Assembly: GCA_963798485.1 (NCBI GenBank)
Contig: CAWCTR010000004.1
Span: 32,001 to 96,000 of the forward strand
From: an uncultured delta proteobacterium
GTDB lineage: Bacteria; Desulfobacterota; Desulfomonilia; UBA1062
DNA length: 64,000 nt
Direction: 5' to 3'
Shown: piece after piece, positions 4,083 through 64,000 of the stretch
Numbering within the stretch: position 1 is the stretch's first letter
Layout of the letters: every line of letters begins with the position of its first letter
Made by a program: the position numbers and the translations under genes
The notes under the pieces: generated by a model
Database searches by the model: none
Told to the model about the DNA's origin: nothing
Seen by the model: only the letters and a program-made list of their open reading frames with translations

Positions 4083-4178
4083 TGATTGTCCATGCCAGTG
4101 TCGGCCATTATATCAGGATAGATCATGGGTCATCTTGATGGATGTCTAGTCGATGCAACCCCTTGAGGAAGAACGTCT

Positions 4179-6035
4179 CTATCCCCGCTCGGACCTCTTA
4201 CTTTGTAGTAGGGGCGGCCGTGATGCCTGGATGCGGTACAGTGCAAAAGCCGAATTCTCCCAGATCAATTTATATCCAAGATTATTGATATATTCCTCTT
4301 TCATGTATGCCAGCTTATCTTTATCCGTCGAGTTTGATTCGCTCTTGGTCACCGGCCATTTGGGCTCTACCCGGGTATCGGTTTTGGAGAGGACGAAGAT
4401 CCGTGGAAGGCGCTTCTCGTCGAGTAGTTTTTGCTGTCTCTGCCTGATCATATCCACGTTGTCGAGAAACAGCCAGGCATTGTCCATGGCGGGTTTTGTT
4501 CCGGTCAGGTAATAAAATAGGGGGAGGTTATTCGCCATGATGACCTCCTCATTCTTTATGGTGTTCCTTCCGATAGCCTCCAGCACTTCATCCACCGCCC
4601 TTACCCTCTGTGGCGTCGAGAAGATGCCGGCAAGTGCAGAATGAGAAAAGGGTACCGTGAGGGCCAGCCTGTTCGGATTGTCCCGGTAGATGTTCGTGAA
4701 ATGGAACATGACCGCCAGCATCATGGCAACTGTGAGCATACTGTTGTTATATGTGCGTACGATGGACAAAGGGGTGTCATTGTTACATTCCAGCCATTTA
4801 TCCATGCAGAGAAAGGAGAGAGGTAAGATCAGCCACATCCCGAAGCCTATATTCAACAAGCCGCGGTTCGATCCTATAGGAGTTATGACCATAATCGAAA
4901 TGCCCGCGATGAGAAGGAGGTTTAGTTTTCCAGTCACACCTTTATCAAGGACCAGGAACAAAGATGAGAGGATTAATGATATTCCTGCTGCTATCATATG
5001 GATCTTGTAGGCGACCATTTCGTATTCCCAGCCTGTCAACTGGAACAGCTGCTTGACAGTTAAAACGACCGGTATGCAGACGAATAATGCTATAGCAAGT
5101 TTTCTGCCTACACATAGCCCAATTATAATAAGCACGATTGTCAACACCATGTAGTGTTTCAATGATGCGGTTAGGATCTTGAGATGCGATTCATAAAGTG
5201 TCGTTAGTGAATTAAGGTCGTGATGAGTACCTTTCACGGTCAATGTCTTGATGCTCTCAGCAAATAGACCCATCGGCCCATGCTGCAGAAGACCAAGATA
5301 CCAGTACATGAAGGCCATGACAGCAGCCGATAATAGGAATCCCAGGAAAGACATCAATAGAAGACGGATTGCCCTGAAAGCCCTGTCCCTTCTCAAAAAA
5401 AGACAGGTTATAAGGAGTATGGCAGGGCAAATAATAACCGTAGCAAGAGAAACCTTGCTCAGTATAACCGGTACAGCAAGGAGACCGATTAGGAAACCAA
5501 AGACATCAGCTCTCATGGTTCCGGCGAGTGCAGTCATCGACTTGTTGAAAAGCCACAGCTCTGCGGTGAGAAGAAATGTGGGGAAAGTATTGTAGTTGAT
5601 GATGTCTATCCCATAACGCATATTGATGAAGAAGGATGATATAAAGACAACGAGAAAGGACTTGTGTCTGTCGAAGTAGTGTGAAGCGATGAAGAATACG
5701 ATGAGGGCATTCATGGAATACAGGAGGATGCCCCCGATTCTTGCCCAGAGAAGGCTCGGTCTCTGAATGACGCTTAGCCACATGCCGCCAAAAAAGTCAG
5801 AGAGGAATATTAGGGGGTATATCCTGTCAGGGTTGATGTGGAGACTGAATGCCTCTACTTGGTTGGATAGGCTCCATCCTGTATCTGTTACATCCACACC
5901 TTGAAAGATAAAGGGGAGATGGGCGAGGAAGACAACAATGAAGAGGGTAAATGTTAAGCACAAGATACCTGTTTCTGGTTTCTGCAGTAGTTCATTTTGA
6001 GATGAATAATAGGTTACTGATGATGGCATCTCCAT
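4179..6035 (-). CDS. Polytopic membrane protein, probably a GT-C-like glycosyltransferase, polymerase or ligase
   Basis: Many hydrophobic segments, an N-terminal QGVDVTDTG loop and a soluble C-terminal domain (LFYYLTGTKP). Probable start MEMPSS at 6035, just after the wzt stop. Confidence 0.6.
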   Translation of the reverse strand: MEMPSSVTYYSSQNELLQKPETGILCLTFTLFIVVFLAHLPFIFQGVDVTDTGWSLSNQVEAFSLHINPDRIYPLIFLSDFFGGMWLSVIQRPSLLWARIGGILLYSMNALIVFFIASHYFDRHKSFLVVFISSFFINMRYGIDIINYNTFPTFLLTAELWLFNKSMTALAGTMRADVFGFLIGLLAVPVILSKVSLATVIICPAILLITCLFLRRDRAFRAIRLLLMSFLGFLLSAAVMAFMYWYLGLLQHGPMGLFAESIKTLTVKGTHHDLNSLTTLYESHLKILTASLKHYMVLTIVLIIIGLCVGRKLAIALFVCIPVVLTVKQLFQLTGWEYEMVAYKIHMIAAGISLILSSLFLVLDKGVTGKLNLLLIAGISIMVITPIGSNRGLLNIGFGMWLILPLSFLCMDKWLECNNDTPLSIVRTYNNSMLTVAMMLAVMFHFTNIYRDNPNRLALTVPFSHSALAGIFSTPQRVRAVDEVLEAIGRNTIKNEEVIMANNLPLFYYLTGTKPAMDNAWLFLDNVDMIRQRQQKLLDEKRLPRIFVLSKTDTRVEPKWPVTKSESNSTDKDKLAYMKEEYINNLGYKLIWENSAFALYRIQASRPPLLQSKRSERG

Positions 6036-8428: not shown

Positions 8429-9559
8429 TCATTTCTTATTTTCCATAACCAGCTGATTGTAACTGGTAATGAATCCCTTGGCAATGGAGTCCCAAGAGAT
8501 GGAGCTATTCATTTTCCGGCTTTTTTGTTCAAGTACAGCAAGGGGAATGGCCCCTGAGAGTGCCTGGATGACCTTCAGGGCCAGGTCTTGGGCATCTCTT
8601 GGTTTGAATAGGAAGCCATCTTTTCCATCCATTACCAATGGTCTGTTGGCGTCAATATCCGTAACTACCGGGGTCAATCCTGAAGCAATTGCCTCGAGGA
8701 GTGCAGGGGATGTTCCGTCGGCAATGGCCGTAGAGACATAGACGGATGCATGTTTCATGAGTTCGGGAATCTTTTCGGATAGGACATGACCGAGAAAGGT
8801 GATGCTCCCTTTGGTATCTATCTCGTGGGCAACAGCCTTCAGATGTGCTTCCTGGGAACCGGTGCCTGCGATGATGAAGCGGGCATCCGGTATGAGCTCC
8901 GTAACAATAGGAACGCTCCGGATCAATGTCTCGGCATCATAGACAGGTTCAAGGCTTCGGGTATACACGACTGTTTTTGTGTTACGGTCAGGGTTGATCT
9001 CGAAGAACTGCGAATCTACTCCCATGGGGATGACCTCTGAGTTTTGGAGTATTTTTCTACTCCTCATGCTTGGAGAGACAATTATCGTCTTATCTGATAA
9101 TCTTGCTGCAAGATCAAAAAGTGCTCTTATGGGCTGTCGTTCGCTGATGCGGAGGTCCATGCCGTGCGCGGTATTAAGGATAGGTACGCGCAGTATGCGG
9201 CCTGCTATGGCGGCGATAAGGCCGGTGGGGACTATCCAGTTGCCATGTATTACATCCGGTTTGTATTTTAATATAAGGTGCAGTGCCTTAATCATCCCGG
9301 ATACCATGTAGATGGCCATGGGGATTAGGCGGATCGAGTCCATCTGGTTCAGCTGTCTGCTGTTACTCGGAAACCAGAAGCGATAAACCTTTATACCGCT
9401 GTCATCTTCGAAGTATGAGCTTTGACTGAGGATCCTCGGGGTGAGAACCAGGACATCCAGTCCATTCTTCATCAGCTCAAGGCAGAGCTTTCTGATGAAT
9501 ATCCCACGCTGTGAACCGGGAAAATCGGGATAGGATGTTGTGATCAGAAGCACTTTCAC
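8429..9559 (-). CDS. GT4 family glycosyltransferase
   Basis: GT-B fold motifs: PDVIHGNW, TAHGMD, and DGTSPALLEAIASG (E-x7-E-like). Confidence 0.88.
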   Translation of the reverse strand: MKVLLITTSYPDFPGSQRGIFIRKLCLELMKNGLDVLVLTPRILSQSSYFEDDSGIKVYRFWFPSNSRQLNQMDSIRLIPMAIYMVSGMIKALHLILKYKPDVIHGNWIVPTGLIAAIAGRILRVPILNTAHGMDLRISERQPIRALFDLAARLSDKTIIVSPSMRSRKILQNSEVIPMGVDSQFFEINPDRNTKTVVYTRSLEPVYDAETLIRSVPIVTELIPDARFIIAGTGSQEAHLKAVAHEIDTKGSITFLGHVLSEKIPELMKHASVYVSTAIADGTSPALLEAIASGLTPVVTDIDANRPLVMDGKDGFLFKPRDAQDLALKVIQALSGAIPLAVLEQKSRKMNSSISWDSIAKGFITSYNQLVMENKK

Positions 9560-52107: not shown

Positions 52108-53247
52108 CTATACCTTTATCGTTCCTTCTTTCATGGTCTTGGTGGGCCTGAAGGTCTCGATGCCGAACTTATCTGCCAGTTCATTGCACCTTGCCACGAG
52201 CTTGTCATATCCGATGCTCTGGGCCAGGGCAAAGGGCCCGAGTCCTCCTCCTCCGTTGGCAATGGCCAGGTCGATGTCCTTGGGGTCGTTCGTTACGCCT
52301 TCTTCAAGGCACTTGGTGGCCTCGTTCACCTGCAGGGCTACCATGTGGGTGAAGTCGTACTCCGTGGTGGGATTGCTGGTATCAATGGTTGGTCTTCCGG
52401 CTGACCAATCATAAAGACCTTTACCGGTTTTTTTACCCAGGTTCCCGGATGCTACCGCGTCAACAAGGGCCTTTCTCGGGGTGTAGTCCTTGGAAAGGGT
52501 CTCGGAGTAATACTTCTGGGTATGCAGTACGATGTCCAGACCCACATAATCAAACAATTCAAAGGGGGTCATGGGCATGAGGGCCTTGAATGCTGCATCG
52601 AACTGGGCAGGCTTTGGGCTTCCCTTGTCCAGGAGGATCTGAAGAAACAGAGCCGTGGGAGCGTTCACACGGTTGTAAATGAAACCCGGCGAGTCCTTTT
52701 TCACAATGACCGGGACCTTGTTCATCTTCTTGGCTACGTCATAGGTGGTTTTGATGGCATCCTCGGAGGACTGCTTGGCATAGATGACCTCCACGAGCTT
52801 CAACATGACCGCGGGGTTGAAAAAGTGCATGCCCACGACGTTGGCCGGCCTCTTTGTTGCCGAGGCAATCGCGGTGATGCTCATGGACGAGGTGTTGCTG
52901 GCCAGAATGGTCTTGGCCGGGGCAAAGGCATCGAGATCGGCGAAGATCTTCTTCTTGAGGGTCAGGTCCTCGAAGACGGCCTCAATCACCAGGTCAGCAT
53001 CCGCCACTGCCGCCTTGAGGTCAATAGTCGGCAGAAGGCGGGAAAGCATATCCTTGTTCTGGTCCTCGCTTATCTTGCCTTTGCTCGCGAACTTTGCAAG
53101 GCTGTCCTTGATGGTGCTCACGCCTCTGTCAACGAAGCGCTGCTCCACGTCGTGCATGGCAACGGTATAGCCTGCCATGAGTCCGACCTGTGCGATGCCG
53201 TTGCCCATGGCCCCGGCGCCGATGACTGCAATCTTTTTCACATCCAT
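52108..53247 (-). CDS. 3-hydroxyacyl-CoA dehydrogenase
   Basis: VIGAGAMGNG, IEAVFE, ASNTSS and GMHFFNP, with an extended or duplicated C-terminal domain. Start MDVKK at 53247 after AGGAGG. Confidence 0.92.
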   Translation of the reverse strand: MDVKKIAVIGAGAMGNGIAQVGLMAGYTVAMHDVEQRFVDRGVSTIKDSLAKFASKGKISEDQNKDMLSRLLPTIDLKAAVADADLVIEAVFEDLTLKKKIFADLDAFAPAKTILASNTSSMSITAIASATKRPANVVGMHFFNPAVMLKLVEVIYAKQSSEDAIKTTYDVAKKMNKVPVIVKKDSPGFIYNRVNAPTALFLQILLDKGSPKPAQFDAAFKALMPMTPFELFDYVGLDIVLHTQKYYSETLSKDYTPRKALVDAVASGNLGKKTGKGLYDWSAGRPTIDTSNPTTEYDFTHMVALQVNEATKCLEEGVTNDPKDIDLAIANGGGGLGPFALAQSIGYDKLVARCNELADKFGIETFRPTKTMKEGTIKV

Positions 53248-53269
53248 TGTTTCCTCCTGATAAACCTTT

Positions 53270-54040
53270 TCATTCACCCTTGAATTCGGGTTTTCTCTTC
53301 TGCATGAATGCGGTGAAGCCCTCTATGGCGTCCTTGGATGTTGCACAGATCTTGCTCCCGGCCGCCTCGACCTTGAGACCCTCTTCGATCCCCTTGGTTA
53401 TGAACGCGGTGGATGCCTGGATGATGGCGCGTACGGACAGCGGCGCCCTCTCGGAAAGGACAGTGGCAATCTCCATGACCTGAGGCATGAGCTGCTCCGG
53501 GGCGAAAAGTTTTTCCACCAGGCCGATGTCCAGGGCCTCCTTGGCGCTCAGGCGTTTTGCGCCCAGCATGAGGTCAAGGGCCTTGGTCCTTCCCAGGAGC
53601 CGGGTCATCCTCTGGGTCCCGCCCCAGCCCGGCGTGATGCCTAGGTTGATCTCGGGACAGCCCATGAAGGCCTTGGGGTTTTCCGCCATGTACCGGAAGT
53701 GGCAGGCCAGCGCCAGCTCGCACCCGCCGCCCAATGCGTGGCCGTTGATGGCTGCGATGGTGGGTTTCTCGAAGAGGTCGACCTTTGTCCATAAGGCGCG
53801 TCCTACTTCGCCGACATCAGGGTGGCTGATTGCATCAGCCACATCCATGCCGGCGCAGAAACATCGGTCTCCAAAACCGGTGATCACAAGAACCCGAGAC
53901 TCCTTGTCTGCCGCCACCTCGTCAAAGACCTTGTCCAGCTCACCCAGCATGACATAGCTCACCGAATTGGCCGGAGGGCGGTTCAGGGTGAGCACAGCCA
54001 CTTTGCCTTGTTTTTCCAAAATCAAGGTTTCATACCCCAT
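53270..54040 (-). CDS. Enoyl-CoA hydratase/isomerase (crotonase)
   Basis: LNRPPAN, FCAGMD, ALGGGCELA and PEINLGITPGWGGTQR. Confidence 0.93.
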   Translation of the reverse strand: MGYETLILEKQGKVAVLTLNRPPANSVSYVMLGELDKVFDEVAADKESRVLVITGFGDRCFCAGMDVADAISHPDVGEVGRALWTKVDLFEKPTIAAINGHALGGGCELALACHFRYMAENPKAFMGCPEINLGITPGWGGTQRMTRLLGRTKALDLMLGAKRLSAKEALDIGLVEKLFAPEQLMPQVMEIATVLSERAPLSVRAIIQASTAFITKGIEEGLKVEAAGSKICATSKDAIEGFTAFMQKRKPEFKGE

Positions 54041-54122
54041 AAAGAATCCTCCTTATTAAATTAATGAAGACATAAACAGTACAGATGTTTGTAAAAGATA
54101 CTGGAGAGGGTGGCAGTTGTCA

Positions 54123-54155
54123 ATAATTTAGAACGAGCGCTCGGTATTAAATTAT
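54123..54155. promoter_or_regulatory. Palindromic putative TetR-type operator
   Basis: ATAATTTA-GAA-CGAGCGCTCG-GTAT-TAAATTAT upstream of the crotonase operon. Confidence 0.5.
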
Positions 54156-54254
54156 CGTTCGCTGATTCGTTGGTATCCATTTAAAAAGAAATTCGTGGCG
54201 CAGCAGTGGCACAAGAACTGTTCAATAATCAGCTGCTCCACCCCTACAATGGGG

Positions 54255-57137
54255 CTATTTGATGGTGAGGCTGACCCTGGAATTGAAGGCCTTATCAATC
54301 TTTGCAGGTGAAAGGGCATCGGTTTTTACCAGGAAGATCCTTCCCGGGTCGATCTTCCCGTCCTCCACGAGATAATCGCGAACCTTCTGGGCCCTGGCCT
54401 CTGCAAGCCCTTTGAGATCATCATCCGTAACCTTGAGGTTTTCAAGGATGAGCTTCTTCCTTTCCTCATCGGGAAGGTTCTTTGCGAACCCTAAGACATT
54501 TTTCGGCTTGCCCTGGAAGTCAAAGGACTTATATGCCTTTTCAAGATAGAGGCTGTATTCTTTTTGCTCGATGGTGATATCATCCACTGAAGATGCCTGC
54601 CTGCCCTGCCTCAGGATGTCCTTAAGCTTCTGTTCCTTGAGCATGCGCTCGAACAGGTAATCGCTAAGCCCGGTCTTGTCGCTTGTGACATCCACGTATC
54701 CGCTGAGCTCCATAGTAAGGGCGGAACGGTCTGCAAGTATCCGGGTGACCTTATCGAGCTTTTGTTTGCCTGCCCCGTTGAGCGATGATCTCCCGGATTC
54801 GAAATCGATGAAGCTGAGCTCCGTTGATCCCGGGTAAAGCGCTTCCAGCAACGCAAAAGGTGATGTAGCGGCCTTTTCGAGGATATTGACAATGGTATGG
54901 ATGATGATCTTGCCCACATGGAAGTCAGGGTCATCGGTACGGCCGGTAATGGGCAGGTGCAGGTCGATCTTCCCGCTGTTGTCCCTGAGCAGGACAACGG
55001 CCAGCCTCACAGGAAGATTCGTTGCATCTTTGCTCGCTATAGCATTGCCGAAGGTAAGCTGGTCGATGATAACATCGTTTTGGGCCTGGAGCTGTTTCTT
55101 GTCGATGGAGTATTTCAACCCAAGGGAGAGCTTCCCCTTCTCAATGGCATACCCTATAAATTTGCCGGAATAAGGCGTGACCGGGCTCAGTTCGATGTTG
55201 TTCAAGCTGGCGGCAAGATCAACGAAGAGGTCCTTTTTCAGAGGGTTGATGGAACCGGTTATGGTAATGGGGGCCTGATTATCAAGCCTGGCCTTCAGGT
55301 TGACCGTGGCCTTTTTGAATTCATCTGATGACAGACCAGAGATGTCACCGGAGATATTGGTCAAGGATGATAAAAATTTCGGGGTAATGGACCGGTCGCT
55401 GAAGGTGAACCGGCCGTTTTTGAACGTGATCTTTCCAACCGCAATGCGTTCAAGGGCCTTCTTTTCCTTCGATGCCTCAGGTGAGGGCTTGGATGGTTTG
55501 TTGCCGAAGACGGCGGCAAAGTTGTTGCTGCCCTCCGGAGTTATAATGAGAGAGGAGGCGGGAGATACAAATCCAATCTCCCTAATGGTGAGGCGCCCGG
55601 GGTTCAGAGAAAAATCAATTCCGGTCAGAATCAGGCTTTTCCAGGAAATGAGGTCCTCTGCATGGGCCCTGTCTACTGAGGCGAAATCTGAGAACGCTGC
55701 ATCCCCGGCAAAATTGATATGTGGGGGTGTATTGGGTGCAAGAACCATCTTTATCTGTCCCTTGGAAGAGATTGTCCCCCGCCTGATGAGGATGGGCACC
55801 TTATCGATGATATAGGGTTGGATCCATGCAGGCTGGAATCCGTCGAGGCTGAACTTGATGTCTGCCGAAGCGGGATTCATGGTGAATGATGTGCCAAGCG
55901 TAAGTCGCCCTGTCTGATTAAGCGTGCATGCAATATCCACTGAGCCTGAGCCTTGTTTGTCAGTAGTGATTTTTTGTGCCGTGATAGAAAGGTCTCCGGT
56001 TGAGATCTTCACCGGCGAGCTCCCTGAAAGATCGGTATAAAACAACTTCCCGCCGGAGAGGTCGATATTATCAACGCTCAGCAGTAAAGGCTTTGATGGC
56101 GCCTCCTCTTTGGCGGGAAGCGAAGGTTGCTTGGACGTTGTCGTTTGAAGGATCTGCGCCAGGTTAATCCTGCCTTTTTTATCTCTGCTTATGTTCAACT
56201 CAGGCGAGGATATGGTGACCCTGGTTACATGGGCCTGTCTTTTCAGGAGCCGTGAAGGGGCCAGCGATGCGGTCATTTTCAGTACATGCAGGATCGGGCT
56301 CGTTTCGAGGTCTTTTACATCAAGATCCTTGCAGGTAAGGTCTCCCGAGACATCCAGTATGGGCTGTTGCTTGGCCCGGAACTGTTTGAAAGAGAACAGG
56401 GCATTAAGGTCCAGGGAACCCGAATTTATCTGTACCCCGAGCTTCACAGGGAGATAGGCCATATAATATGGCAGATTGATATCCTTCAGATTCAAGGCAA
56501 GGGAGGTTTCCAATGACTCGGAGAAGGGCTTTGTCTTGCCACTGAGCCTGAAAGGCGTTCCGTTTATGATTGCCTGAAAGCTCGGCTGAACAAAGACATT
56601 CGTGTAGTAGGGGATGTTGGACAGGAATGGAATGCTGACGTTGATGTCTTTAACGATATGGGTCTTGCGGAGAGGCCGATCATCCAGAGAGATCCGGCCG
56701 CCTGTGATCTGGATATTGGCTATGGAAAACTCCTGGGGTTTCTCCTTTTTTTTAGTGCCCTTCATGAGATCGGAGAAATTGTATGTCCCGTCTACGAACC
56801 GGATGACCTTGATAGAAGGGTTTTCCAGTTTTATCTCGCGGATGATGGGCGCCCTCTTGAAAAGGGATGCCCATTCGAGGTCGATGGTCAGCGAGGCTAA
56901 AGAGACGAATGAATCAGGGCGTTCCTGATCCTTAATGGACAGGCCCTGGACAATAACCACGAGGGTATAGGGGTTAATTTTTATTTTCTGAATGGTTACT
57001 TCCCGGTGTAGTGCCTGCCTGAGGTTTTTTGAGAGCACTGATGTGAGGACGGGGGGCAGGACGAAGAACCCCGTGATCGTAAAGACGATCCATAGGGAAA
57101 TAACCACGATGGAAATGGTGCGTATCTTCTTTCTCAT
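54255..57137 (-). CDS. DUF748 (AsmA-like) protein with C-terminal OmpA-like domain
   Basis: N-terminal TM, NPYTL, SPYSGKF-like TPYSGKFIGY..EKGKL, KAATSPFALL and LAEARAQKVRDYL. Start likely MRKK at 57137. Confidence 0.85.
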   Translation of the reverse strand: MRKKIRTISIVVISLWIVFTITGFFVLPPVLTSVLSKNLRQALHREVTIQKIKINPYTLVVIVQGLSIKDQERPDSFVSLASLTIDLEWASLFKRAPIIREIKLENPSIKVIRFVDGTYNFSDLMKGTKKKEKPQEFSIANIQITGGRISLDDRPLRKTHIVKDINVSIPFLSNIPYYTNVFVQPSFQAIINGTPFRLSGKTKPFSESLETSLALNLKDINLPYYMAYLPVKLGVQINSGSLDLNALFSFKQFRAKQQPILDVSGDLTCKDLDVKDLETSPILHVLKMTASLAPSRLLKRQAHVTRVTISSPELNISRDKKGRINLAQILQTTTSKQPSLPAKEEAPSKPLLLSVDNIDLSGGKLFYTDLSGSSPVKISTGDLSITAQKITTDKQGSGSVDIACTLNQTGRLTLGTSFTMNPASADIKFSLDGFQPAWIQPYIIDKVPILIRRGTISSKGQIKMVLAPNTPPHINFAGDAAFSDFASVDRAHAEDLISWKSLILTGIDFSLNPGRLTIREIGFVSPASSLIITPEGSNNFAAVFGNKPSKPSPEASKEKKALERIAVGKITFKNGRFTFSDRSITPKFLSSLTNISGDISGLSSDEFKKATVNLKARLDNQAPITITGSINPLKKDLFVDLAASLNNIELSPVTPYSGKFIGYAIEKGKLSLGLKYSIDKKQLQAQNDVIIDQLTFGNAIASKDATNLPVRLAVVLLRDNSGKIDLHLPITGRTDDPDFHVGKIIIHTIVNILEKAATSPFALLEALYPGSTELSFIDFESGRSSLNGAGKQKLDKVTRILADRSALTMELSGYVDVTSDKTGLSDYLFERMLKEQKLKDILRQGRQASSVDDITIEQKEYSLYLEKAYKSFDFQGKPKNVLGFAKNLPDEERKKLILENLKVTDDDLKGLAEARAQKVRDYLVEDGKIDPGRIFLVKTDALSPAKIDKAFNSRVSLTIK

Positions 57138-57276
57138 CTTAATTATATTTATATGCACTCGGAAAGTCAACTTTACCGGTATCGTAAGAAAAGATCAAGG
57201 GAGCGACGTGGGGAACATTGAAAAGAGAAACCGTCGACCTTATCAAAAGTAGTGGAAAGAAAAAGGGAGGAGAACA

Positions 57277-58371
57277 ATGTTCGATTCTTGTTTGGATATT
57301 ACCAAGTTCATGGAAACAGCAACCTACAGGCGCACACCCGAGTTCATTACCCCGAACAGGATTGTCCATGAAGACAAGGCCGTCATTCTCAGGCGGTTTG
57401 ATGAGGGACGGACCGGTGCCCCGCTGCTCATAGTGCCGCCCCAGGCGGGCCACCATTCGAGCATATCCGATTATGCACAGGAGCAAAGCCTGGTCCAGAC
57501 ATGTCTGAGGGAAACGACGCTGCCGGTGTATGTCATTGAATGGAAACCGAGCACCCCAACCAGGCAGCATGAGACCATCAGCGATCTTGTATTGCAGCTG
57601 AGGCTGTGCGTGCATGATGCAGGAGAACCGGTGATCCTCGTGGGGCTCTGCCAGGGCGGGTGGCTCTGCGCCATCTATGCGGCCCTTTACCCTAAGGATG
57701 TCAAGGCACTTATGCTGGCAGCCGCGCCTATTGATTTCACAGCGGGTGGAGGCAAGCTCCAGGATGTGGTCCAGGGCATGCCCATCGATTTCTACCAGTG
57801 GCTCGTTACCATGGGCCTTGGAAACATGCTCGGCGACATGATGCTCATGGGGTGGAAGATCATGAACCCTTATGAGCGGTTCGTAAGCGACTTCATCAAC
57901 CTCTGGGTCAATGTTAGGGATGAAAAATATTTGGAGAGGTCCAAACAGTTTCAGACCTGGTATGAGTATACCCAGAACATATCGGGCAGGTGGTATCTGC
58001 AGGCCGTGGACAAGCTCTTCAAAAAGAATCTCCTCATCCAGGGGAAGTTAAGGATTTTGGGAAAGTATGTGGATCTGCGCACCATCGCGTGCCCCATCGC
58101 CATGCTCGCAGGAGAAAAGGACGATATTACCCTGGTGCCGCAGCTCTTCAATATGAGCTCATATGTGGCAACCCCGCCTGAGGATGTCTTCCAGACAATA
58201 GTGGAGGATGCAGGGCACATCTCCGTATTTATGGGTCGAAAGGCCCTGAAGGACCACTGGCCGCCGGCGCTGAGGTTCACCCTTGAAAAGGCGGGGCTTG
58301 GTGCCGCACTCACCTATGGGGCAAGGCGAAACCAGAATATTGGACCTTCCCGGCAGATGGGCTCTACGTAA
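57277..58371 (+). CDS. Cys-nucleophile alpha/beta hydrolase related to PHA synthase/depolymerase (DUF3141-like)
   Basis: IVPPQAGH, GLCQGGW lipase box, AAAPIDF, GEKDDIT (Asp) and AGHISVF (His); strong RBS. Confidence 0.8.
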   Translation: MFDSCLDITKFMETATYRRTPEFITPNRIVHEDKAVILRRFDEGRTGAPLLIVPPQAGHHSSISDYAQEQSLVQTCLRETTLPVYVIEWKPSTPTRQHETISDLVLQLRLCVHDAGEPVILVGLCQGGWLCAIYAALYPKDVKALMLAAAPIDFTAGGGKLQDVVQGMPIDFYQWLVTMGLGNMLGDMMLMGWKIMNPYERFVSDFINLWVNVRDEKYLERSKQFQTWYEYTQNISGRWYLQAVDKLFKKNLLIQGKLRILGKYVDLRTIACPIAMLAGEKDDITLVPQLFNMSSYVATPPEDVFQTIVEDAGHISVFMGRKALKDHWPPALRFTLEKAGLGAALTYGARRNQNIGPSRQMGST

Positions 58372-58415
58372 AAGAAACCTCTACAAAGAGCATAATGAAG
58401 AGGGTGGATGAAACA

Positions 58416-58892
58416 TTATCTGCCCTTTTTCTTTTTGTTGGTTTTTTCTTGAGTGTGCGGACCTGGTTGAGGAGAGAATCCCGGGAAAGGAGCTATTCCA
58501 TTCATGGCGTTGCGTGCCATCTCCGAGTAATTCATGCCCATATTCAGCCACTTGCCGAACTGCTCGTCAAAGGCCTGCTTGTACTGAAGATAGGAATTTA
58601 TGGAGTCCTGCAGGTGTTTGTCAAAGAATTCGTGGAGAATACTACCGCCATAGCGGATGGCGAGGTGCAGCAGCGGCGGAGGCAACAGGGCATTCCTGTT
58701 CTTCGCCTCCTCCAGGATAATCTGTGTGAGGATGAATGCGGTAACGTCCTCGCTGGTCTTGGCATCAAGGACCTGCACGTCTTTGCCGCCCCTGATAATG
58801 TCCGCCACCTGGTTCAGCGTGACATAAGAGCTGTTTTCCGGGTTGTAAAGCCGCCTGCTCGCATATTTCTTCAGGATAACGGTCTCGCTCAT
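58416..58892 (-). CDS. phaR: Polyhydroxyalkanoate synthesis repressor PhaR
   Basis: ILKKYASRRLYNPENSSYVTL...VQVLDAKTSEDVTAFILTQIILEE matches the PHB-accumulation DNA-binding domain, followed by LLHLAIRYG. Confidence 0.9.
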   Translation of the reverse strand: MSETVILKKYASRRLYNPENSSYVTLNQVADIIRGGKDVQVLDAKTSEDVTAFILTQIILEEAKNRNALLPPPLLHLAIRYGGSILHEFFDKHLQDSINSYLQYKQAFDEQFGKWLNMGMNYSEMARNAMNGIAPFPGFSPQPGPHTQEKTNKKKKGR

Positions 58893-58937
58893 AGCCCACC
58901 CATTCACTATTCTTCCACCAATACATTACCCTACTTA

Positions 58938-58954
58938 TTGTCACAGCGCAACAA
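58938..58954. promoter_or_regulatory. Putative PhaR operator 1
   Basis: TTGTCACAGCGCAACAA (reverse TTGTTGCGCTGTGACAA), 17 bp, upstream of phaR. Confidence 0.55.
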
Positions 58955-59065
58955 AAACCCCGCCGGGGCTCCGCCGGAATCGAGCTTACCACGATCATTA
59001 ATAGTCATATTAAATAGATAAGCTAAACATATCTCGACGACGAAACAACCAGTCAGAAATAATAA

Positions 59066-59117
59066 TTGCTGCAATGCAACAATCGCCCCTTGACAATCCA
59101 TTCTTTGCCACTATTAT
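59066..59117 (+). promoter_or_regulatory. Putative PhaR operator 2 plus sigma70 promoter of the phasin-like operon
   Basis: TTGCTGCAATGCAACAA (59066-59082), then TTGACA (59090-59095), 16 bp, TATTAT (59112-59117). Confidence 0.65.
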
Positions 59118-59164
59118 AGGCTTGATTCCCAAGATAACGCTCATAATAGAGTAAGGAGGCAACA

Positions 59165-59422
59165 ATGGAAAACAAGGAACTCGTAAAACAGATGGTTGAT
59201 TTGCACAAGACATCCTTCGACAACAGCTTCAACATGCTCATTACCCTGCAGGACCAGATGGAAAAGATGGTTAATTCTTTTGTGGAACAAGCGCCATGGC
59301 TTCCAGCAGAGGGAAAGAAGGCAGTGACCAACCTGGTTAGCACCTATAAAAAGGGACGCGAAGACTTCAAGAAGGTCGTTGATGACGGTTATAAAAAGGT
59401 TGAGGAATACATAGCCAAATAG
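59165..59422 (+). CDS. Small amphipathic helical protein, putative phasin (paralog 1)
   Basis: AAGGAGG RBS; 85 aa; KQMV.LHKTSFDNSFN..LQDQ.EK...YKKGREDFKK. Confidence 0.75.
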   Translation: MENKELVKQMVDLHKTSFDNSFNMLITLQDQMEKMVNSFVEQAPWLPAEGKKAVTNLVSTYKKGREDFKKVVDDGYKKVEEYIAK

Positions 59423-59454
59423 GCTAAAAAATTTAAATTAGGGAGGCGATAACA

Positions 59455-59727
59455 ATGGATTATCAAAAAGACATGGCAAAGCAGGTGATTGCGTTTTACA
59501 AGACGACCTTTGACAACAGCTTCAACACAATGATCATGCTTCAGGAACAGGCGGAAAAGTTCATTAAGACCTTTGTCTCACAGGCCCCTGGGATGAACGA
59601 CGAGGGGAGGAAGGTGCTGGACCAGTGGATGGGCGTGTATAAGAAGGGCCGCGATGATTACAAGAAGGCCATGGATGAGGGATATGCCAAGGTAGAAGAG
59701 TTCTTCGATAAATTCTCAAAGAGCTGA
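59455..59727 (+). CDS. Small amphipathic helical protein, putative phasin (paralog 2)
   Basis: GGAGG RBS; 90 aa; aligns with paralogs 1 and 3. Confidence 0.75.
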   Translation: MDYQKDMAKQVIAFYKTTFDNSFNTMIMLQEQAEKFIKTFVSQAPGMNDEGRKVLDQWMGVYKKGRDDYKKAMDEGYAKVEEFFDKFSKS

Positions 59728-59784
59728 TGAAAGGACCTGCCCTGCAGGTTAAAAAAAGAGAAAGCAAGGGAAAGGGGAACCGCC

Positions 59785-60075
59785 ATGGACGAGAAAATTA
59801 TTGTCAAACAGATGCTCGATTTTCATAAAAGCACATTCCAGAACAGTTACAATGCAATGGTAATGCTCCAGGACCAGACCGAAAAGATGCTCAGCACCTT
59901 TTTGAGCCAGGCAAACTGGATACCGCAGGACTTCAAGAAGGTTATGGGAGAGTGGACCACCACCTACAAGAAGGGCCGAGATGAATTCAAGAAATCAATC
60001 GATGAGAACTTCAAGCGCGTGGATGACTATTTCTCAGTTTCAGACAAGCCTCAGACCAAGACAAAGCAGCAATAG
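59785..60075 (+). CDS. Small amphipathic helical protein, putative phasin (paralog 3)
   Basis: 96 aa; same KQM.DFHKSTF.NS.N..LQDQ.EK...YKKGRDEFKK pattern. Confidence 0.75.
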   Translation: MDEKIIVKQMLDFHKSTFQNSYNAMVMLQDQTEKMLSTFLSQANWIPQDFKKVMGEWTTTYKKGRDEFKKSIDENFKRVDDYFSVSDKPQTKTKQQ

Positions 60076-60109
60076 GTTTGCTTGCAGCGAAGACTTTTGC
60101 GGGGGGACT

Positions 60110-61702
60110 ATGGATGACATCAATGAAGCAACCGATCGGGGCTTTGAGTATTATGGGTCTGTTTTCAAAGGGATTGAAAGGCTCATGGGCCTGAGTCTCG
60201 CCTTAGGCGAGGCCTCCCAGGAAAAGCTCAAGGCCAACGGTATATACTTCAATGGCGTGTTCAAGTACCTCAATGAGTTCATGACCCCCTTCTGGATCGC
60301 ATTGAACTCTTTTAATGCCACCGAGCGCGAGAAGCTTGTCCGCCACACCCCCCAGGACAGCTTGCGCGATTACCTCGAGCTCCTCCAGTTCAATATCCAA
60401 GTGGCACAAAGAGGCTATGACAGCTCGATGAAGGCCATGACCGATTTCCATATGAACGAGCTCTCCAGGGCATTCAATTCATGGCTCAACACCATATTCG
60501 ACCGGGACGGGGAGGACATCCAGTCCTTTGTGGAACGACAGGCCAACCTCCTGCAAAAGGTGATCTACGAATATCCCAAGGCCATTGATGATATCGAACC
60601 GGAGTATGGGTTCCACTTCGACACGGATGGTTATAAGAAGATAGCCGAGACAGAGCGCTTTACCGTCTATCAGGTTCTTCCGCAAAAGGGCATAAAGATC
60701 AAGTCGCTTTCAAAGCCGATCCTCATTATCCCGCCTTACGTACTCGGCGCCAACATACTTGGCTTTCTCCCAGGCGAGGGCAAGAGCTATGTCCATGCCT
60801 ACGCCAACCAGGGGATACCCACGTATGTGCGCGTGCTCAAAGATATCGAGACCACGCCTGCCGTCCAGATCATGACCGGTGAAGACGATGCGTTGGACAC
60901 CAGGTATTTCTGCGAGATCCTTCATAAGAAGCACAAGCTGCCTGTAACGCTCAACGGCTTCTGCCAGGGCGGGTTTGTAGCAGTGCTGGACATCGTATCG
61001 GGCGAGCTCGACGGCCTTGTGGATGCGCTTATCACCTGCGTGGCGCCCATGGACGGAACCAGGAGCAAGGCATTAATCGAATATCTTGCTCACCTGCCCG
61101 GCCGCTTCCGCGATCTCGGTTATGCCGTCAAAGACCTGCCGAACGGCAACTCCGTGGTGGACGGCAAGGTAATGAGCTGGGTGTACAAGCTCAAGAGCAT
61201 GGACAGAGAGGCCCCCATTTATACCCTCTACCGCGACCTCATGATGTTCGACGATCCGCTGGGCAAGGATGTGAAGATAACGAAGACCGCTGCGGCGCTG
61301 AACCACTGGCTCATTTACGACCGCAAAGACATTCCGGTGGCCATCACGAAAATGAGCTTCGATTCCTATACCGTTCCGGTGGCCGAAGACGGTACCTTGC
61401 CGGTGAAGCTCTTTGGCCGGAAGCTCAATTTTAAGAGGATCACGGAAAAAGGCATCAAATTCCTCATCTGCTATGCGGAAAATGATGACCTTGTGGACAA
61501 GGAGTCAGCACGGGCACCGCTTGATTATGTGGATGCGGAGGTGACCGTGTTCCCTAAGGGCCATGGCGCTATTGCAACGACCTGGTCCGCGACCGAGACG
61601 GAATATGCCATCCATAAACGCTATGCAAACGGCTCGCGAGGGCCGGTGCGATTCCAGCTTGACCTCGATGAAGAGATCAGAAAGGGGAAATCCCATGGAT
61701 AA
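60110..61702 (+). CDS. Divergent PHA synthase-like alpha/beta hydrolase (530 aa)
   Basis: Start MDDIN at 60110 after a G-rich RBS; KPILIIPPYVLGANIL, NGFCQGG (Cys box), CVAPMD, AENDDLV (Asp) and PKGHGAI (His). Confidence 0.72.
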   Translation: MDDINEATDRGFEYYGSVFKGIERLMGLSLALGEASQEKLKANGIYFNGVFKYLNEFMTPFWIALNSFNATEREKLVRHTPQDSLRDYLELLQFNIQVAQRGYDSSMKAMTDFHMNELSRAFNSWLNTIFDRDGEDIQSFVERQANLLQKVIYEYPKAIDDIEPEYGFHFDTDGYKKIAETERFTVYQVLPQKGIKIKSLSKPILIIPPYVLGANILGFLPGEGKSYVHAYANQGIPTYVRVLKDIETTPAVQIMTGEDDALDTRYFCEILHKKHKLPVTLNGFCQGGFVAVLDIVSGELDGLVDALITCVAPMDGTRSKALIEYLAHLPGRFRDLGYAVKDLPNGNSVVDGKVMSWVYKLKSMDREAPIYTLYRDLMMFDDPLGKDVKITKTAAALNHWLIYDRKDIPVAITKMSFDSYTVPVAEDGTLPVKLFGRKLNFKRITEKGIKFLICYAENDDLVDKESARAPLDYVDAEVTVFPKGHGAIATTWSATETEYAIHKRYANGSRGPVRFQLDLDEEIRKGKSHG

Positions 61703-62297
61703 GCAGTTTTTAGAGTTCTGGGGTAATATGATGCTCTCCTCAGCCAAGGGCCAGCAGCAGTTTGAAGACATCATGAAGTGGTTCTCGGGCAATTTCACGG
61801 AGTTCAAAGACATCACTTCGACCTTCTGCAAGATGTATGGGCTCGACCCGGAGGCCCAAAATGCACCCGGAAACCTTAATATATGGCAGAAGGCCTTTGA
61901 CGAGTTTCAGAGATCCTTTGGCGAACTTGCCATCATGATGGACTTGGTGCCCAGAAAGGAATACATCGCCCTGTCCCGGGAGAACCAGGACCTGAAGAGA
62001 CGCCTTGCCGAGCTGGAAGAAGGTATGGCCCACCAGAGGGCGCTCCTGGCGGAAAAGACCATTGTTTCAAGCGAGGGGCTCAAGGGTTTCCAGGAGCTCA
62101 TCAGCGAGCAGGCAAAACATTATCAGGATTTCATGAAAAATATAGGCAATATCTTCGAGGAGAAACCCTACTCGCCAGAGGCCCGGCCCGCGCCCGCAGC
62201 TGACAAGCCCAAGCCTGCATCCGCAGGGCCGAAAAAGACTAAGACGAAGGCCGAGGTTGCAACAAATACAACTACGAAAGCTACTAAGAAAAAGTGA
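61695..62297 (+). CDS. PhaE-like helical/coiled-coil protein with P/A/K/T-rich tail (200 aa)
   Basis: Start MDKQFLEFW at 61695 overlaps the upstream stop; DLVPRKEY..L..ENQDLKRRLAELEE coiled coil; tail PAPAADKPKPASAGPKKTKTK...KATKKK. Confidence 0.6.
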   Translation: MDKQFLEFWGNMMLSSAKGQQQFEDIMKWFSGNFTEFKDITSTFCKMYGLDPEAQNAPGNLNIWQKAFDEFQRSFGELAIMMDLVPRKEYIALSRENQDLKRRLAELEEGMAHQRALLAEKTIVSSEGLKGFQELISEQAKHYQDFMKNIGNIFEEKPYSPEARPAPAADKPKPASAGPKKTKTKAEVATNTTTKATKKK

Positions 62298-62502: not shown

Positions 62503-62811
62503 ATGAAAAACCGCAGGAGAGATAGACGGGTACATTTCCCGGCCAAAATAGATGCAACCATTACCTACAGCGATGCATTGAAGAAGGTTGCAGGCGGCCT
62601 CATCGGAGACATAAGTACGAACGGCATGTTCATGTTGACAGAAGCTGTCCTTGACAAGGATGCCTATGTGACCATGCGGCTTAACAGCGAAAACTATATT
62701 GGGAAATCTGTCTATATCCAGGGACTTGTTGTCCGCACCGATGACCGCGGAATGGCCATCAGGTTTACCCATGCCGACGATGACGATATTACCACACTTT
62801 TGAGTTATTAA
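62503..62811 (+). CDS. Single-domain PilZ protein
   Basis: RRRDRRV (RxxxR), DISTNG (D/NxSxxG) and VVR...GMAIRF. Confidence 0.88.
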   Translation: MKNRRRDRRVHFPAKIDATITYSDALKKVAGGLIGDISTNGMFMLTEAVLDKDAYVTMRLNSENYIGKSVYIQGLVVRTDDRGMAIRFTHADDDDITTLLSY

Positions 62812-64000
62812 TCTGTACACATTGAGATTTAATCAAACCATTTTGATTGAATGGTTGGGAATAGCGGTGAATGTTGTAAGCCCCATACTTTGATATTGTA
62901 AAGGAAGGGGCAGGATTTTCGGATGCAATCATGATCTTGCCGACCCCGTTTTGATAGTGGATGACCGTTTTGAAACTTTTAGAAATATCCATGAGATGTG
63001 TAATGATCTTCTTTGCCGGGGTGCCTCTGACGAGCCTGGGTTGGAACCCGACCTCCTGATTGTTTACATTCAGCGGGTACAGGATTACCTGTACCGGGAC
63101 ATTGCCCTTGAACCTTGTAACCGGAGCAAAGCTGAACGTCGCATTATCACTGATGGCGCCGAAGGCATAGTTACCAAGACTGTAAAAGACAGGCCTGCCC
63201 TTGAATATCTCTATGGGCTGCGGTACATGGGGGTGATGGCCCAGCACGATATCCGCCCCTGCATTTATCGCATGATGGGCAAAATCGATTTGATACTTCT
63301 TGGGCTCGCTCTTCAGTTCCTCACCCCAGTGGAAGCTCACTATGAGGATATCCACCCTTGATCTGGCATCCCTGATATCCTGTCCCACTTGCGCCCAGTC
63401 AGGGTGTGCGGTGCCCGGCTTATGGGGGGTTGCCCAGAACTCCTCGGGAAAGGTCAGCGAATATGCCAGGAGGCCATACCGCACCCCGTGCCTTTTTATG
63501 ACAGCGAGGCTGCCGGCTGATGCCAGGTCAGCCCCTGCCCCGGTAAAGACGAGCCTGTTTTTCCGGCACTGCCTGATGGTATCCCTTAGGCCCTTCTCGC
63601 CATAATCCATGATATGGTTATTCGCCAGTGACAGGAGGTTAAAGCCTGCCTTCCTGATGGCGCCGAGCGATTCCGGATCACCCCTGAAGGTGTACTCCTT
63701 GTCTGTGTAGCGGACCCCCTCCATGGTAATGGGATATTCGAGGTTTGCAAATGCAATATCAGCAGAAGCGATAAGCCTCTCAAGGTTTTCATCCTGGAAA
63801 GGATAATCATATCCCTTTGCCTGAAGAAGAGGTTTTGCGCTGCCGGTAAGCATGATATCGCCGACTGCGAGCACACAGTGTACTTGCAGCGCACTCTCAT
63901 CACCCGTCTTGCTGTGAACATCACCGAATAAGGCACTGGGATACCAGGAAAGCATTGTCAGTATAATGCAGATGGGCAGTATGGGGAGTGTTGCCCGTGA
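62789..64000 (-). CDS. CapA/PGA_cap family metallophosphatase-like protein, start beyond the right window edge
   Basis: AVGDIML, NLEYP, SLANNHIMDYG, FHWGEE, GHHPHV and YSLGNY; the frame stays open to 64000. Confidence 0.9.
   Translation of the reverse strand, partial: SRATLPILPICIILTMLSWYPSALFGDVHSKTGDESALQVHCVLAVGDIMLTGSAKPLLQAKGYDYPFQDENLERLIASADIAFANLEYPITMEGVRYTDKEYTFRGDPESLGAIRKAGFNLLSLANNHIMDYGEKGLRDTIRQCRKNRLVFTGAGADLASAGSLAVIKRHGVRYGLLAYSLTFPEEFWATPHKPGTAHPDWAQVGQDIRDARSRVDILIVSFHWGEELKSEPKKYQIDFAHHAINAGADIVLGHHPHVPQPIEIFKGRPVFYSLGNYAFGAISDNATFSFAPVTRFKGNVPVQVILYPLNVNNQEVGFQPRLVRGTPAKKIITHLMDISKSFKTVIHYQNGVGKIMIASENPAPSFTISKYGAYNIHRYSQPFNQNGLIKSQCVQINNSKVW

Follow-up and report, generated by a model that had tools for sequence, protein, structure and literature searches.

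Introduction

Polyhydroxyalkanoate (PHA) synthases have been divided into four classes for decades, and Hai and colleagues reportedly described a class III enzyme in Desulfococcus multivorans in 2004. Here I describe a locus from an uncultured delta proteobacterium whose central enzyme lies outside all four classes. The window, by which I mean the whole stretch of 64,000 nucleotides that was analysed, comprises positions 32001-96000 of contig C4 in a 4.3-Mb metagenome-assembled genome (MAG) that is 97.5% complete and whose closest relatives, among the matches listed, carry the public labels Desulfomonilia or 'delta proteobacterium'. At 57277-62297 of the window lie a hydrolase of 364 residues (H364), the repressor PhaR, and an operon encoding three short phasin-like paralogs, a 530-residue protein with a GFCQGG box (C530) and a 200-residue coiled-coil protein (CC200). 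C530 is a deeply divergent enzyme of the PhaC superfamily and, judging from its sequence and from the genomes that carry it, C530 and CC200 probably, if by no means certainly, make up a second PHA synthase of an undescribed type, working beside a canonical class III PhaEC-PhaJ system.

Each of the closest described systems resembles this locus in some features and departs from it in others. Class III PhaC-PhaE (Allochromatium vinosum type) shares with C530 the G-x-C-Q-G-G box and alignable Cys, Asp, His and Trp residues, also pairs its catalytic protein with a separately encoded helical partner, and provides the best NCBIfam match of C530. With 30.2 bits, however, that match falls far short of the cut-off of 365.3; C530 carries an additional helical domain of ~160 residues at its N-terminus, CC200 is shorter than PhaE (200 versus ~260-350 residues) and matches only its C-terminal part, and the gene order is C then partner rather than E then C. 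C530 is also predicted to be co-transcribed with phasins under PhaR, and its genome encodes a true class III PhaEC as well. Class I PhaC (Cupriavidus necator 5HZ2/5T6O, Chromobacterium 5XAV/6K3C, Aeromonas caviae 9KNJ-L) gives the best structural matches (Z 27-28.9), is similar in size and likewise has an N-terminal helical region before the catalytic domain, but identity is just 12-17%, C530 lacks any TIGR01838 or Pfam match, its three-helix N-domain is left unsuperposed in most rows, and a small partner gene is dedicated to it. Class IV PhaC-PhaR (Bacillus/Priestia megaterium) also has a small coiled-coil partner (~160-200 residues); the nearest named cluster to CC200 is a Bacillota 'PhaR' and the first phasin-like paralog has a faint PhaP_Bmeg trace, all sub-threshold. 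Unlike in class IV, the regulator here is a proteobacterial-type PhaR (PF07879), not PhaQ, and C530 is some 170 residues longer than class IV PhaC. Finally, depolymerases of the PhaZa1 type (TIGR01849) and DUF3141 proteins belong to the same superfamily, use a Cys nucleophile and are associated with PHA loci; they form a continuum that takes in H364 and the PhaZ-like neighbours of the module in other orders, whereas C530 carries the PhaC box and not A[VI]CQP.

Results

C530 is a divergent member of the PhaC superfamily

In profile searches C530 falls below every PhaC class cut-off. Its sole NCBIfam match, to the class III model TIGR01836 (E-value (E) 2.3e-7), pairs residues 173-502 with profile positions 37-344 of 350, and no match was found to TIGR01838 (class I) or TIGR01839 (class II) at E<=0.01, to the PhaZ model TIGR01849, to any Pfam family even at E<=10 or, by sequence, to any PDB chain at E<=1. 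Structure gives a clearer answer. The AlphaFold2 (AF2) model of C530 (predicted local distance difference test (pLDDT) 91.9, predicted template modelling score (pTM) 0.88) consists of an N-domain (residues ~1-161) of three long helices (2-78, 81-129 and 137-161) followed by an alpha/beta hydrolase catalytic domain (~165-527). When this model was compared with solved structures by VIA-align, the top seven rows were all PhaC (Z 27.0-28.9, root-mean-square deviation 3.0-4.0 over 306-315 residues), with gastric and lysosomal lipases forming the next tier (Z 23.1-23.6). Foldseek gave PhaC matches at E 2.5e-12 to 4e-9 and a first non-PhaC match at 1.3e-7. The N-domain lies mostly outside the superpositions with PhaC. 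A sequence-only reading of this DNA had taken the 530-residue protein for a divergent synthase, possibly of a new type, and the profile and structural searches together uphold a place outside classes I-IV.

The residues expected of such an enzyme are in place. Across 37 C530 members, down to 21% identity, P209, L212, P237, C285, P313, D459 and H485 never vary, conservation of W400 reaches at least 90%, and the GFCQGG box occurs in 76/76 family members, where the neighbouring PhaZ-like family carries A[VI]CQP. In profile-profile alignment C285, D459, H485 and W400 are matched to the Cys of GICMGG, the Asp of YDHLVP, the His of TGHIG and the Trp of MEKW in the canonical PhaC encoded in the same genome. 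C530 has the superfamily-level features of PhaC, namely a G-x-C-x-G-G Cys elbow and Asp, His and Trp at PhaC positions, and is probably a catalytically competent member of the superfamily.

Class placement was made by profile-profile comparison (hhalign) among five families present in the loci, and in this comparison C530 is the outlier. Its nearest family is H364 (E 1.6e-7), DUF3141 gives E 4.4e-4, and the PhaZ-like family is the furthest (E 0.079). The N-domain region showed no link to the phasin-like, CC200 or PhaE families (E 0.12-0.58). Some C530 homologues end in Lys/Ala/Pro-rich tails of 37-142 residues, and hhalign found no link between the long tails and CC200.

The family is large and discrete. 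Relatives of C530 number 2075 proteins at E<=0.001 among 8000 candidates scored, and in a library of 1.84 billion proteins 286 clusters (50% identity) score E<=0.001. When one genome per species was scanned with a 13-member alignment as query, at least 565 species genomes proved to encode a relative. Their source labels include 'metal transporter', 'hypothetical protein' and 'pimeloyl-ACP methyl ester carboxylesterase'. Sulfate-reducing and syntrophic bacteria commonly encode this clade, a mislabelled branch of the PHA synthase superfamily. The literature searched yielded no description of the family: the available part of bioRxiv 10.1101/693432 mentions just a protein with DUF3141 and PHB_depo_C in a Desulfobacteraceae genome, and the available parts of PMC5109826 and PMC11887813 yielded no PHA content.

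C530 belongs to a conserved module

The features of the locus are as follows (window coordinates).

57277-58371, plus strand: H364, a 364-residue PhaC-like alpha/beta hydrolase with the Cys box GLCQGG
58397-58430, no strand: hairpin resembling a terminator, between the H364 and phaR genes, which converge (pattern scan only)
58416-58907, minus strand: PhaR, PHA-responsive repressor, 163 residues (PF07879, 90.1 bits)
59064-59084: near-palindromic candidate operator for PhaR, AATTGCTGCAATGCAACAATC (TGC-N3-GCA core, 59070-59078)
59090-59117, plus strand: sigma-70-type promoter of the phasin-C530-CC200 operon (TTGACA, 16 nucleotides, TATTAT)
59165-59422, plus strand: phasin-like paralog 1, 85 residues
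59455-59727, plus strand: phasin-like paralog 2, 90 residues
59785-60075, plus strand: phasin-like paralog 3, 96 residues
60110-61702, plus strand: C530, the 530-residue GFCQGG protein, a divergent PhaC-superfamily enzyme
61695-62297, plus strand: CC200, the 200-residue coiled-coil partner with a Lys-rich tail

The H364 and phaR genes converge, and phaR and the phasin-C530-CC200 operon diverge. Within the operon the intergenic gaps are 32, 57 and 34 nucleotides and the CC200 start overlaps the C530 stop by 8 nucleotides, an overlap that suggests translational coupling of CC200 to C530; a pattern scan of the plus strand inside the operon found no terminator-like site. The C530 start codon is backed by 530-residue homologues that align over 100% of the query. 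In L021, a 95%-identical relative, the H364 (4172-5291) and CC200 (8463-9192) frames are each split into two overlapping open reading frames (ORFs), which are either frameshifts or assembly errors.

Synteny was followed in the best 80 of at least 565 stretches, with ORFs matched to window proteins by phmmer, and the counts take in only loci with enough flank to judge. Among the loci, L071 comes from a cultured organism, Desulfoferrobacter suflitae DRH4. A phasin-like gene lies upstream of C530 in 70/75 loci, a CC200 gene downstream in 56/70, and a divergent phaR in 49/59; the downstream flank includes a canonical class III PhaC in 42/51. Recurrence in related genomes puts this arrangement far outside what chance would give. 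The flanking canonical PhaC is usually part of a phaE-phaC-GAF-phaJ set, which runs in the same direction in Syntrophales-labelled records and converges in the others. This set directly follows CC200 in most relatives and has moved elsewhere in the window genome and in L021, neither of which has it adjacent to the module. In the window genome it is found on contig C7 (L005:5870-13136) and encodes a PhaE of 260 residues, a PhaC of 402 residues that clears the cut-off at 437 bits, a GAF regulator and a MaoC/PhaJ hydratase; it adjoins an ORF resembling GIY-YIG/UvrC and a reverse transcriptase/maturase of a group II intron (TIGR04416, 355.7 bits).

Canonical phaEC is thus present both on contig C7 and beside the module in those 42/51 loci, and the C530 module is therefore a conserved accessory to a class III system rather than the sole synthase locus. 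This changes part of the sequence-only reading. All the genes that it described at 57277-62297 were recovered there by the ORF listing and family scans, its view of the region as a storage-polyester (PHA-granule) locus is upheld, and the synteny with phaR that it called for extends across Desulfobacterota orders. Its idea that the locus replaces a class I-IV system finds no support, given that the same genome encodes a canonical class III phaE-phaC, and the lack of phaA and phaB, which it had cited as a misfit with class I-IV loci, is not odd for a class III system fed by PhaJ.

Some draft genomes carry the module without a detected canonical synthase

The census covered 401 genomes of the phylum, with cross-tabulations drawn from the match lists. 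C530 is encoded in 21/401, the window genome included, and class III PhaC at E<=1e-60 in 47/401, 40 of them over the cut-off. Fifteen of the 21 C530 genomes also have class III PhaC, and three (G143, G344 and G388) have class I-type PhaC (TIGR01838 599-763 bits, 5/6 genes over the cut-off). A tandem pair of class I-type PhaC genes stands beside the PhaR-phasin-C530 module in G143 (L096, contig C355, 6961-13799) and G344 (contig C329), whereas G388 has one adjacent (contig C192; 599 bits, just below the cut-off) and a second on another contig. In L096, C530 has a 140-residue Lys/Ala/Pro-rich tail, and a CC200 gene was not found there.

G142 (99% complete, 40 contigs), G159 (94%) and G228 (99%) gave no match to TIGR01836 or TIGR01838 at E<=0.001; at E<=0.01, searches with the canonical PhaC protein, TIGR01849 and PF11339 were likewise negative. 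All three retain PhaR, two phasin-like genes, C530 and CC200. Beside these module-alone loci stand GNAT-thiolase genes (L093, L095) or a MaoC hydratase gene (L094). At L093:12171-14554 and L095:11360-16865, GNAT acetyltransferase and thiolase genes come after phaR, with a second GNAT after the thiolase in L093, and in L095 a patatin-like phospholipase and a CitMHS-like transporter lie between the phasin genes. A further search took in 31 locus genomes with no canonical PhaC in the flank. Class III PhaC over the cut-off was present elsewhere in 22 of them, while two had fragments only, one a class I-like gene and one weak matches only; in the other five (G404, G406, G410, G415 and G422, of unknown completeness) neither class I nor class III PhaC was found.

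CC200 and the phasin-like paralogs

The N-terminus of CC200, MD..FLEFWG, is near-invariant in 40 homologues. Aligned by hhalign with 47 canonical PhaE proteins from related loci, CC200 gives a probability of 59% and E 9.1e-5 over 68 columns, pairing its profile positions 57-124 with PhaE positions 223-297. At E<=0.1, TIGR01837 is matched by 15/40 CC200 members and the PhaE model TIGR01834 by 5/40, all below the cut-offs; PF05597 is matched by 5/40, sub-threshold, and CC200 itself reaches 12.6 bits on PF09712, below the PhaE cut-off of 25.7. The nearest named Atlas cluster, the Bacillota 'PhaR' with PF09712 on 20% of its members (score 0.85), is a lead only. The sequence-only reading had made CC200 a PhaE-like partner, and a faint yet recurrent PhaE/granule-protein signal, sub-threshold throughout, agrees with it. 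CC200 is probably a short coiled-coil partner of C530 resembling PhaE or the Bacillus PhaR, and C530 and CC200 would form a complex.

The three phasin-like paralogs are 47-49% identical to one another. The AF2 model of paralog 1 (pLDDT 94.8) is a helix-loop-helix, i.e. a two-helix hairpin, for which Foldseek against the PDB returned just generic helical hairpins (best E 0.54). The family falls below the cut-offs of the curated phasin families (PF09361, PF05597, PF09602, TIGR01837 and related): Phasin_2 is matched by 4/36 members and PhaP_Bmeg by 2/36, all sub-threshold, and paralog 1 has sub-threshold traces of these two only. The Atlas clusters nearest to paralog 3 are Thermodesulfobacteriota-only, one of them auto-named 'Phasin family protein'. 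Distribution is more informative. The family occurs in 34/401 genomes of the phylum sample, 33 of which also hold C530 and/or class III PhaC; C530 is present in 18 of the 34, and of the 16 without it 15 have class III PhaC, often on the same contig. The family tracks PHA capacity whichever synthase is present, and a general phasin fits its distribution better than a C530-specific subunit because 15/16 of the C530-less carriers hold class III PhaC. As small helical proteins that lie downstream of a conserved operator and promoter and are coupled to PHA capacity, the paralogs would qualify as phasins by function.

PhaR and its predicted operator

PhaR matches PF07879 at 90.1 bits (cut-off 25), which places in it the PHB_acc_N DNA-binding domain, and scores 98.2 bits on TIGR01848, just below the cut-off of 109.45. 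In the 257-nucleotide spacer between phaR and the first phasin-like gene, AATTGCTGCAATGCAACAATC at 59064-59084 stands immediately before the TTGACA (59090) of a promoter that matches 11/12 consensus positions, with a 16-nucleotide spacer and a TATTAT ending at 59117. The pattern [AT]TnnTGCAnTGCAAcA[AT], followed by TTGAC 5-8 nucleotides on, recurs in 54/55 phaR-phasin spacers of related loci, and the strict operator-promoter composite has one occurrence in the 4.3-Mb genome. The TGC-N3-GCA core is similar to PhaR boxes described in Rhodobacter and Paracoccus. PhaR probably binds at this predicted operator.

H364 and its depolymerase-like counterparts

The sequence-only reading held that PhaR alone is easily recognised at this locus. 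H364 is an exception, as it passes the Pfam cut-offs of PF11339 (DUF3141; 71.1 bits, cut-off 29.7) and PF06850 (PHB_depo_C; 46.2 bits, cut-off 27). With 137 bits on TIGR01836 against a cut-off of 365.3 it stays outside class III, and with 63.5-64.8 bits on TIGR01849 against 300.75, and a GLCQGG motif, it stays outside the PhaZa1 type. H364 aligns along its whole length with canonical PhaC, to whose Cys, Asp, His and Trp its C125, D282, H314 and W228 correspond, all four invariant in 11 orthologues; hhalign links it to canonical PhaC at E 2.6e-29 and to the PhaZ-like family at 6.3e-24. Clear orthologues were found in the closest relatives only. In other orders the gene that converges on phaR encodes a 460-520-residue PhaZ-like protein with an A[VI]CQP motif, a PhaZa1-type signature. 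Such PhaZ-like ORFs number 18 among the 80 loci (Desulfobacterales, Syntrophales), 17/18 with A[VI]CQP, and the six that were scanned have TIGR01849 as best match at 87-117 bits (cut-off 300.75). H364 is a candidate depolymerase or third synthase paralog, and by analogy it would be the likeliest mobilising enzyme because it holds the position of the PhaZa1-like depolymerase in other orders.

A full-length DUF3141 protein (788.8 bits) is encoded elsewhere in the window genome, at contig C14:253664-255388, and in some Desulfobacteraceae-labelled loci (L022:9299-11494, L049:13338-15503) a DUF3141 protein of ~720-730 residues lies within ~0.7 kilobases of phaE. DUF3141 looks PHA-linked too.

Surrounding genes

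Upstream of the locus, 52108-57170 of the window encodes on the minus strand a 3-hydroxyacyl-CoA (coenzyme A) dehydrogenase, a crotonase and a 971-residue DUF748/AsmA-family protein (929.5 bits); the crotonase and DUF748 genes are syntenic in the close relatives L008, L009, L011 and L076. Downstream, at 62503-63955, a PilZ-domain protein and a PGA_cap (capsule synthesis) protein fill the site held by phaJ-GAF-phaC-phaE in relatives. Contig C10 (L006:2097-7788) carries a separate neutral-lipid locus, encoding a 735-residue protein with an acyl-ACP-reductase-like region, a 626-residue alpha/beta hydrolase whose C-terminal end is PhaC-like, and a wax-ester synthase of the WS/DGAT type (TIGR02946, above the cut-off with 391 bits).

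Discussion

How might such a module work? In the absence of polymer, PhaR would sit on the TGC-N3-GCA palindrome and occlude the -35 box of a strong sigma-70 promoter. Once PHA appears, PhaR would be titrated onto the granule and the operon transcribed, giving three small helical-hairpin phasins and the two-part enzyme C530/CC200. C530 would form an acyl-Cys285 intermediate, with His485 and Asp459 placed as in PhaC, and the Lys-rich tail of CC200 may tether granules. C530/CC200 could serve, for example, as a granule-induced bulk polymerase or as an enzyme with another monomer range, and H364 would mobilise the polymer as a depolymerase. A bolder and more doubtful proposal is that C530 and CC200 form a fifth, self-sufficient class of PHA synthase, widespread in Desulfobacterota, in which at least 565 species genomes encode a relative. 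Its distinguishing features, put forward equally tentatively, would be the built-in three-helix N-domain, a mini PhaE-like partner, and a single PhaR-controlled operon with its own phasin family. Where class III or class I synthases are also present, labour would in this scheme be shared: the constitutive canonical enzyme would start the granules, titration of PhaR would switch on the second polymerase, and that polymerase could take different monomers fed from beta-oxidation.

Several observations weigh against C530/CC200 as a second synthase. The score of C530 on the class III model is just the 30.2 bits given above, with nothing on the class I, class II and PhaZ models; hhalign aligns it only weakly with canonical PhaC (E 5.1e-4, probability 31%); where canonical PhaC has a His directly after the catalytic Asp, forming a DH pair, C530 has an Asp; and every family signal from CC200 and the phasin-like proteins lies below the curated cut-offs. 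Most C530 genomes already hold a canonical synthase, so that a second is not needed to explain granules, and the module-alone genomes are MAGs (draft bins), in which a missing contig could hide a canonical operon. One alternative makes C530/CC200 a granule-bound depolymerase, with Cys285 as the nucleophile that attacks the polyester and CoA or water releasing the acyl group from the enzyme. Thiolysis to 3-hydroxyacyl-CoA would save thioester energy in energy-limited anaerobes, and the enzyme would be co-expressed with the phasins it needs: PhaZa1 of Ralstonia is reported in PMC7147478 to yield 3-hydroxybutyryl-CoA from granules by thiolysis only with PhaP1. No protein of the window genome exceeds the PhaZ cut-off (the best TIGR01849 match is H364, at 63.5 bits), which leaves room for such a role, C530 usually shares its genome with a canonical synthase (class III in 15/21, class I in 3/21), and the fold match may not tell a synthase from a thiolytic depolymerase because no PhaZa1-type structure is among the listed solved matches; enzymes of that type are not known to have a solved structure. 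Yet the depolymerase slot beside the same module is already filled by PhaZ-like ORFs (the 18 among 80 loci), and C530 is furthest from that group and nearest to the PhaC-like H364. The main reason for favouring a synthase is that three genomes of 94-99% completeness keep C530, PhaR and phasins with no synthase for a depolymerase to act after, and a depolymerase with phasins and PhaR but no synthase would make no sense. The thiolase and MaoC neighbours in these synthase-less genomes also favour a true synthase, and I regard the depolymerase as unlikely.

The same genomes speak against a purely supporting function, in which C530 would be no bulk polymerase but an auxiliary granule acyl-enzyme (priming, chain transfer or termination) or, by analogy with PhaM and PhaF, an activator or scaffold with CC200. 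Such a function would suit a protein whose gene adjoins a canonical synthase, class III or class I, in most loci, and the Lys/Ala/Pro-rich tails of CC200 and several C530 homologues resemble the nucleoid-binding tails of PhaF and PhaM. But the module-alone genomes have no canonical synthase to assist, and a Cys-Asp-His triad that is invariant down to 21% identity argues for catalysis rather than scaffolding, which makes an auxiliary role rather improbable. It is more improbable still, to the point of being hard to credit, that the operon serves a non-PHA inclusion (wax ester, triacylglycerol, polythioester or an unusual hydroxyacid polymer) and that PhaR is an incidental neighbour. A wax-ester locus with a WS/DGAT synthase and an alpha/beta hydrolase of its own is indeed present in the genome, lipases are the second-tier structural matches of C530, and the small paralogs fall in no curated phasin family. 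The module, however, is tied to phaR (49/59 loci) and to canonical phaEC-phaJ (42/51) and was not seen beside WS/DGAT, and 33 of the 34 genomes with the phasin-like family hold C530 and/or class III PhaC.

The curated PhaC models miss the C530 clade, with the consequence that genome surveys underestimate or misinterpret the ability of sulfate reducers and syntrophs from sediments, peat and digesters to store PHA. If C530/CC200 does polymerise, it would offer a new enzyme scaffold and a new type of partner for bioplastic engineering, a natural case of two synthases acting in series through PhaR, and a small new phasin family. If it should instead prove to be a thiolytic depolymerase, it would fill an unknown mobilisation step in energy-limited anaerobes. 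Either outcome would correct the widespread annotation of these proteins as a 'metal transporter'.

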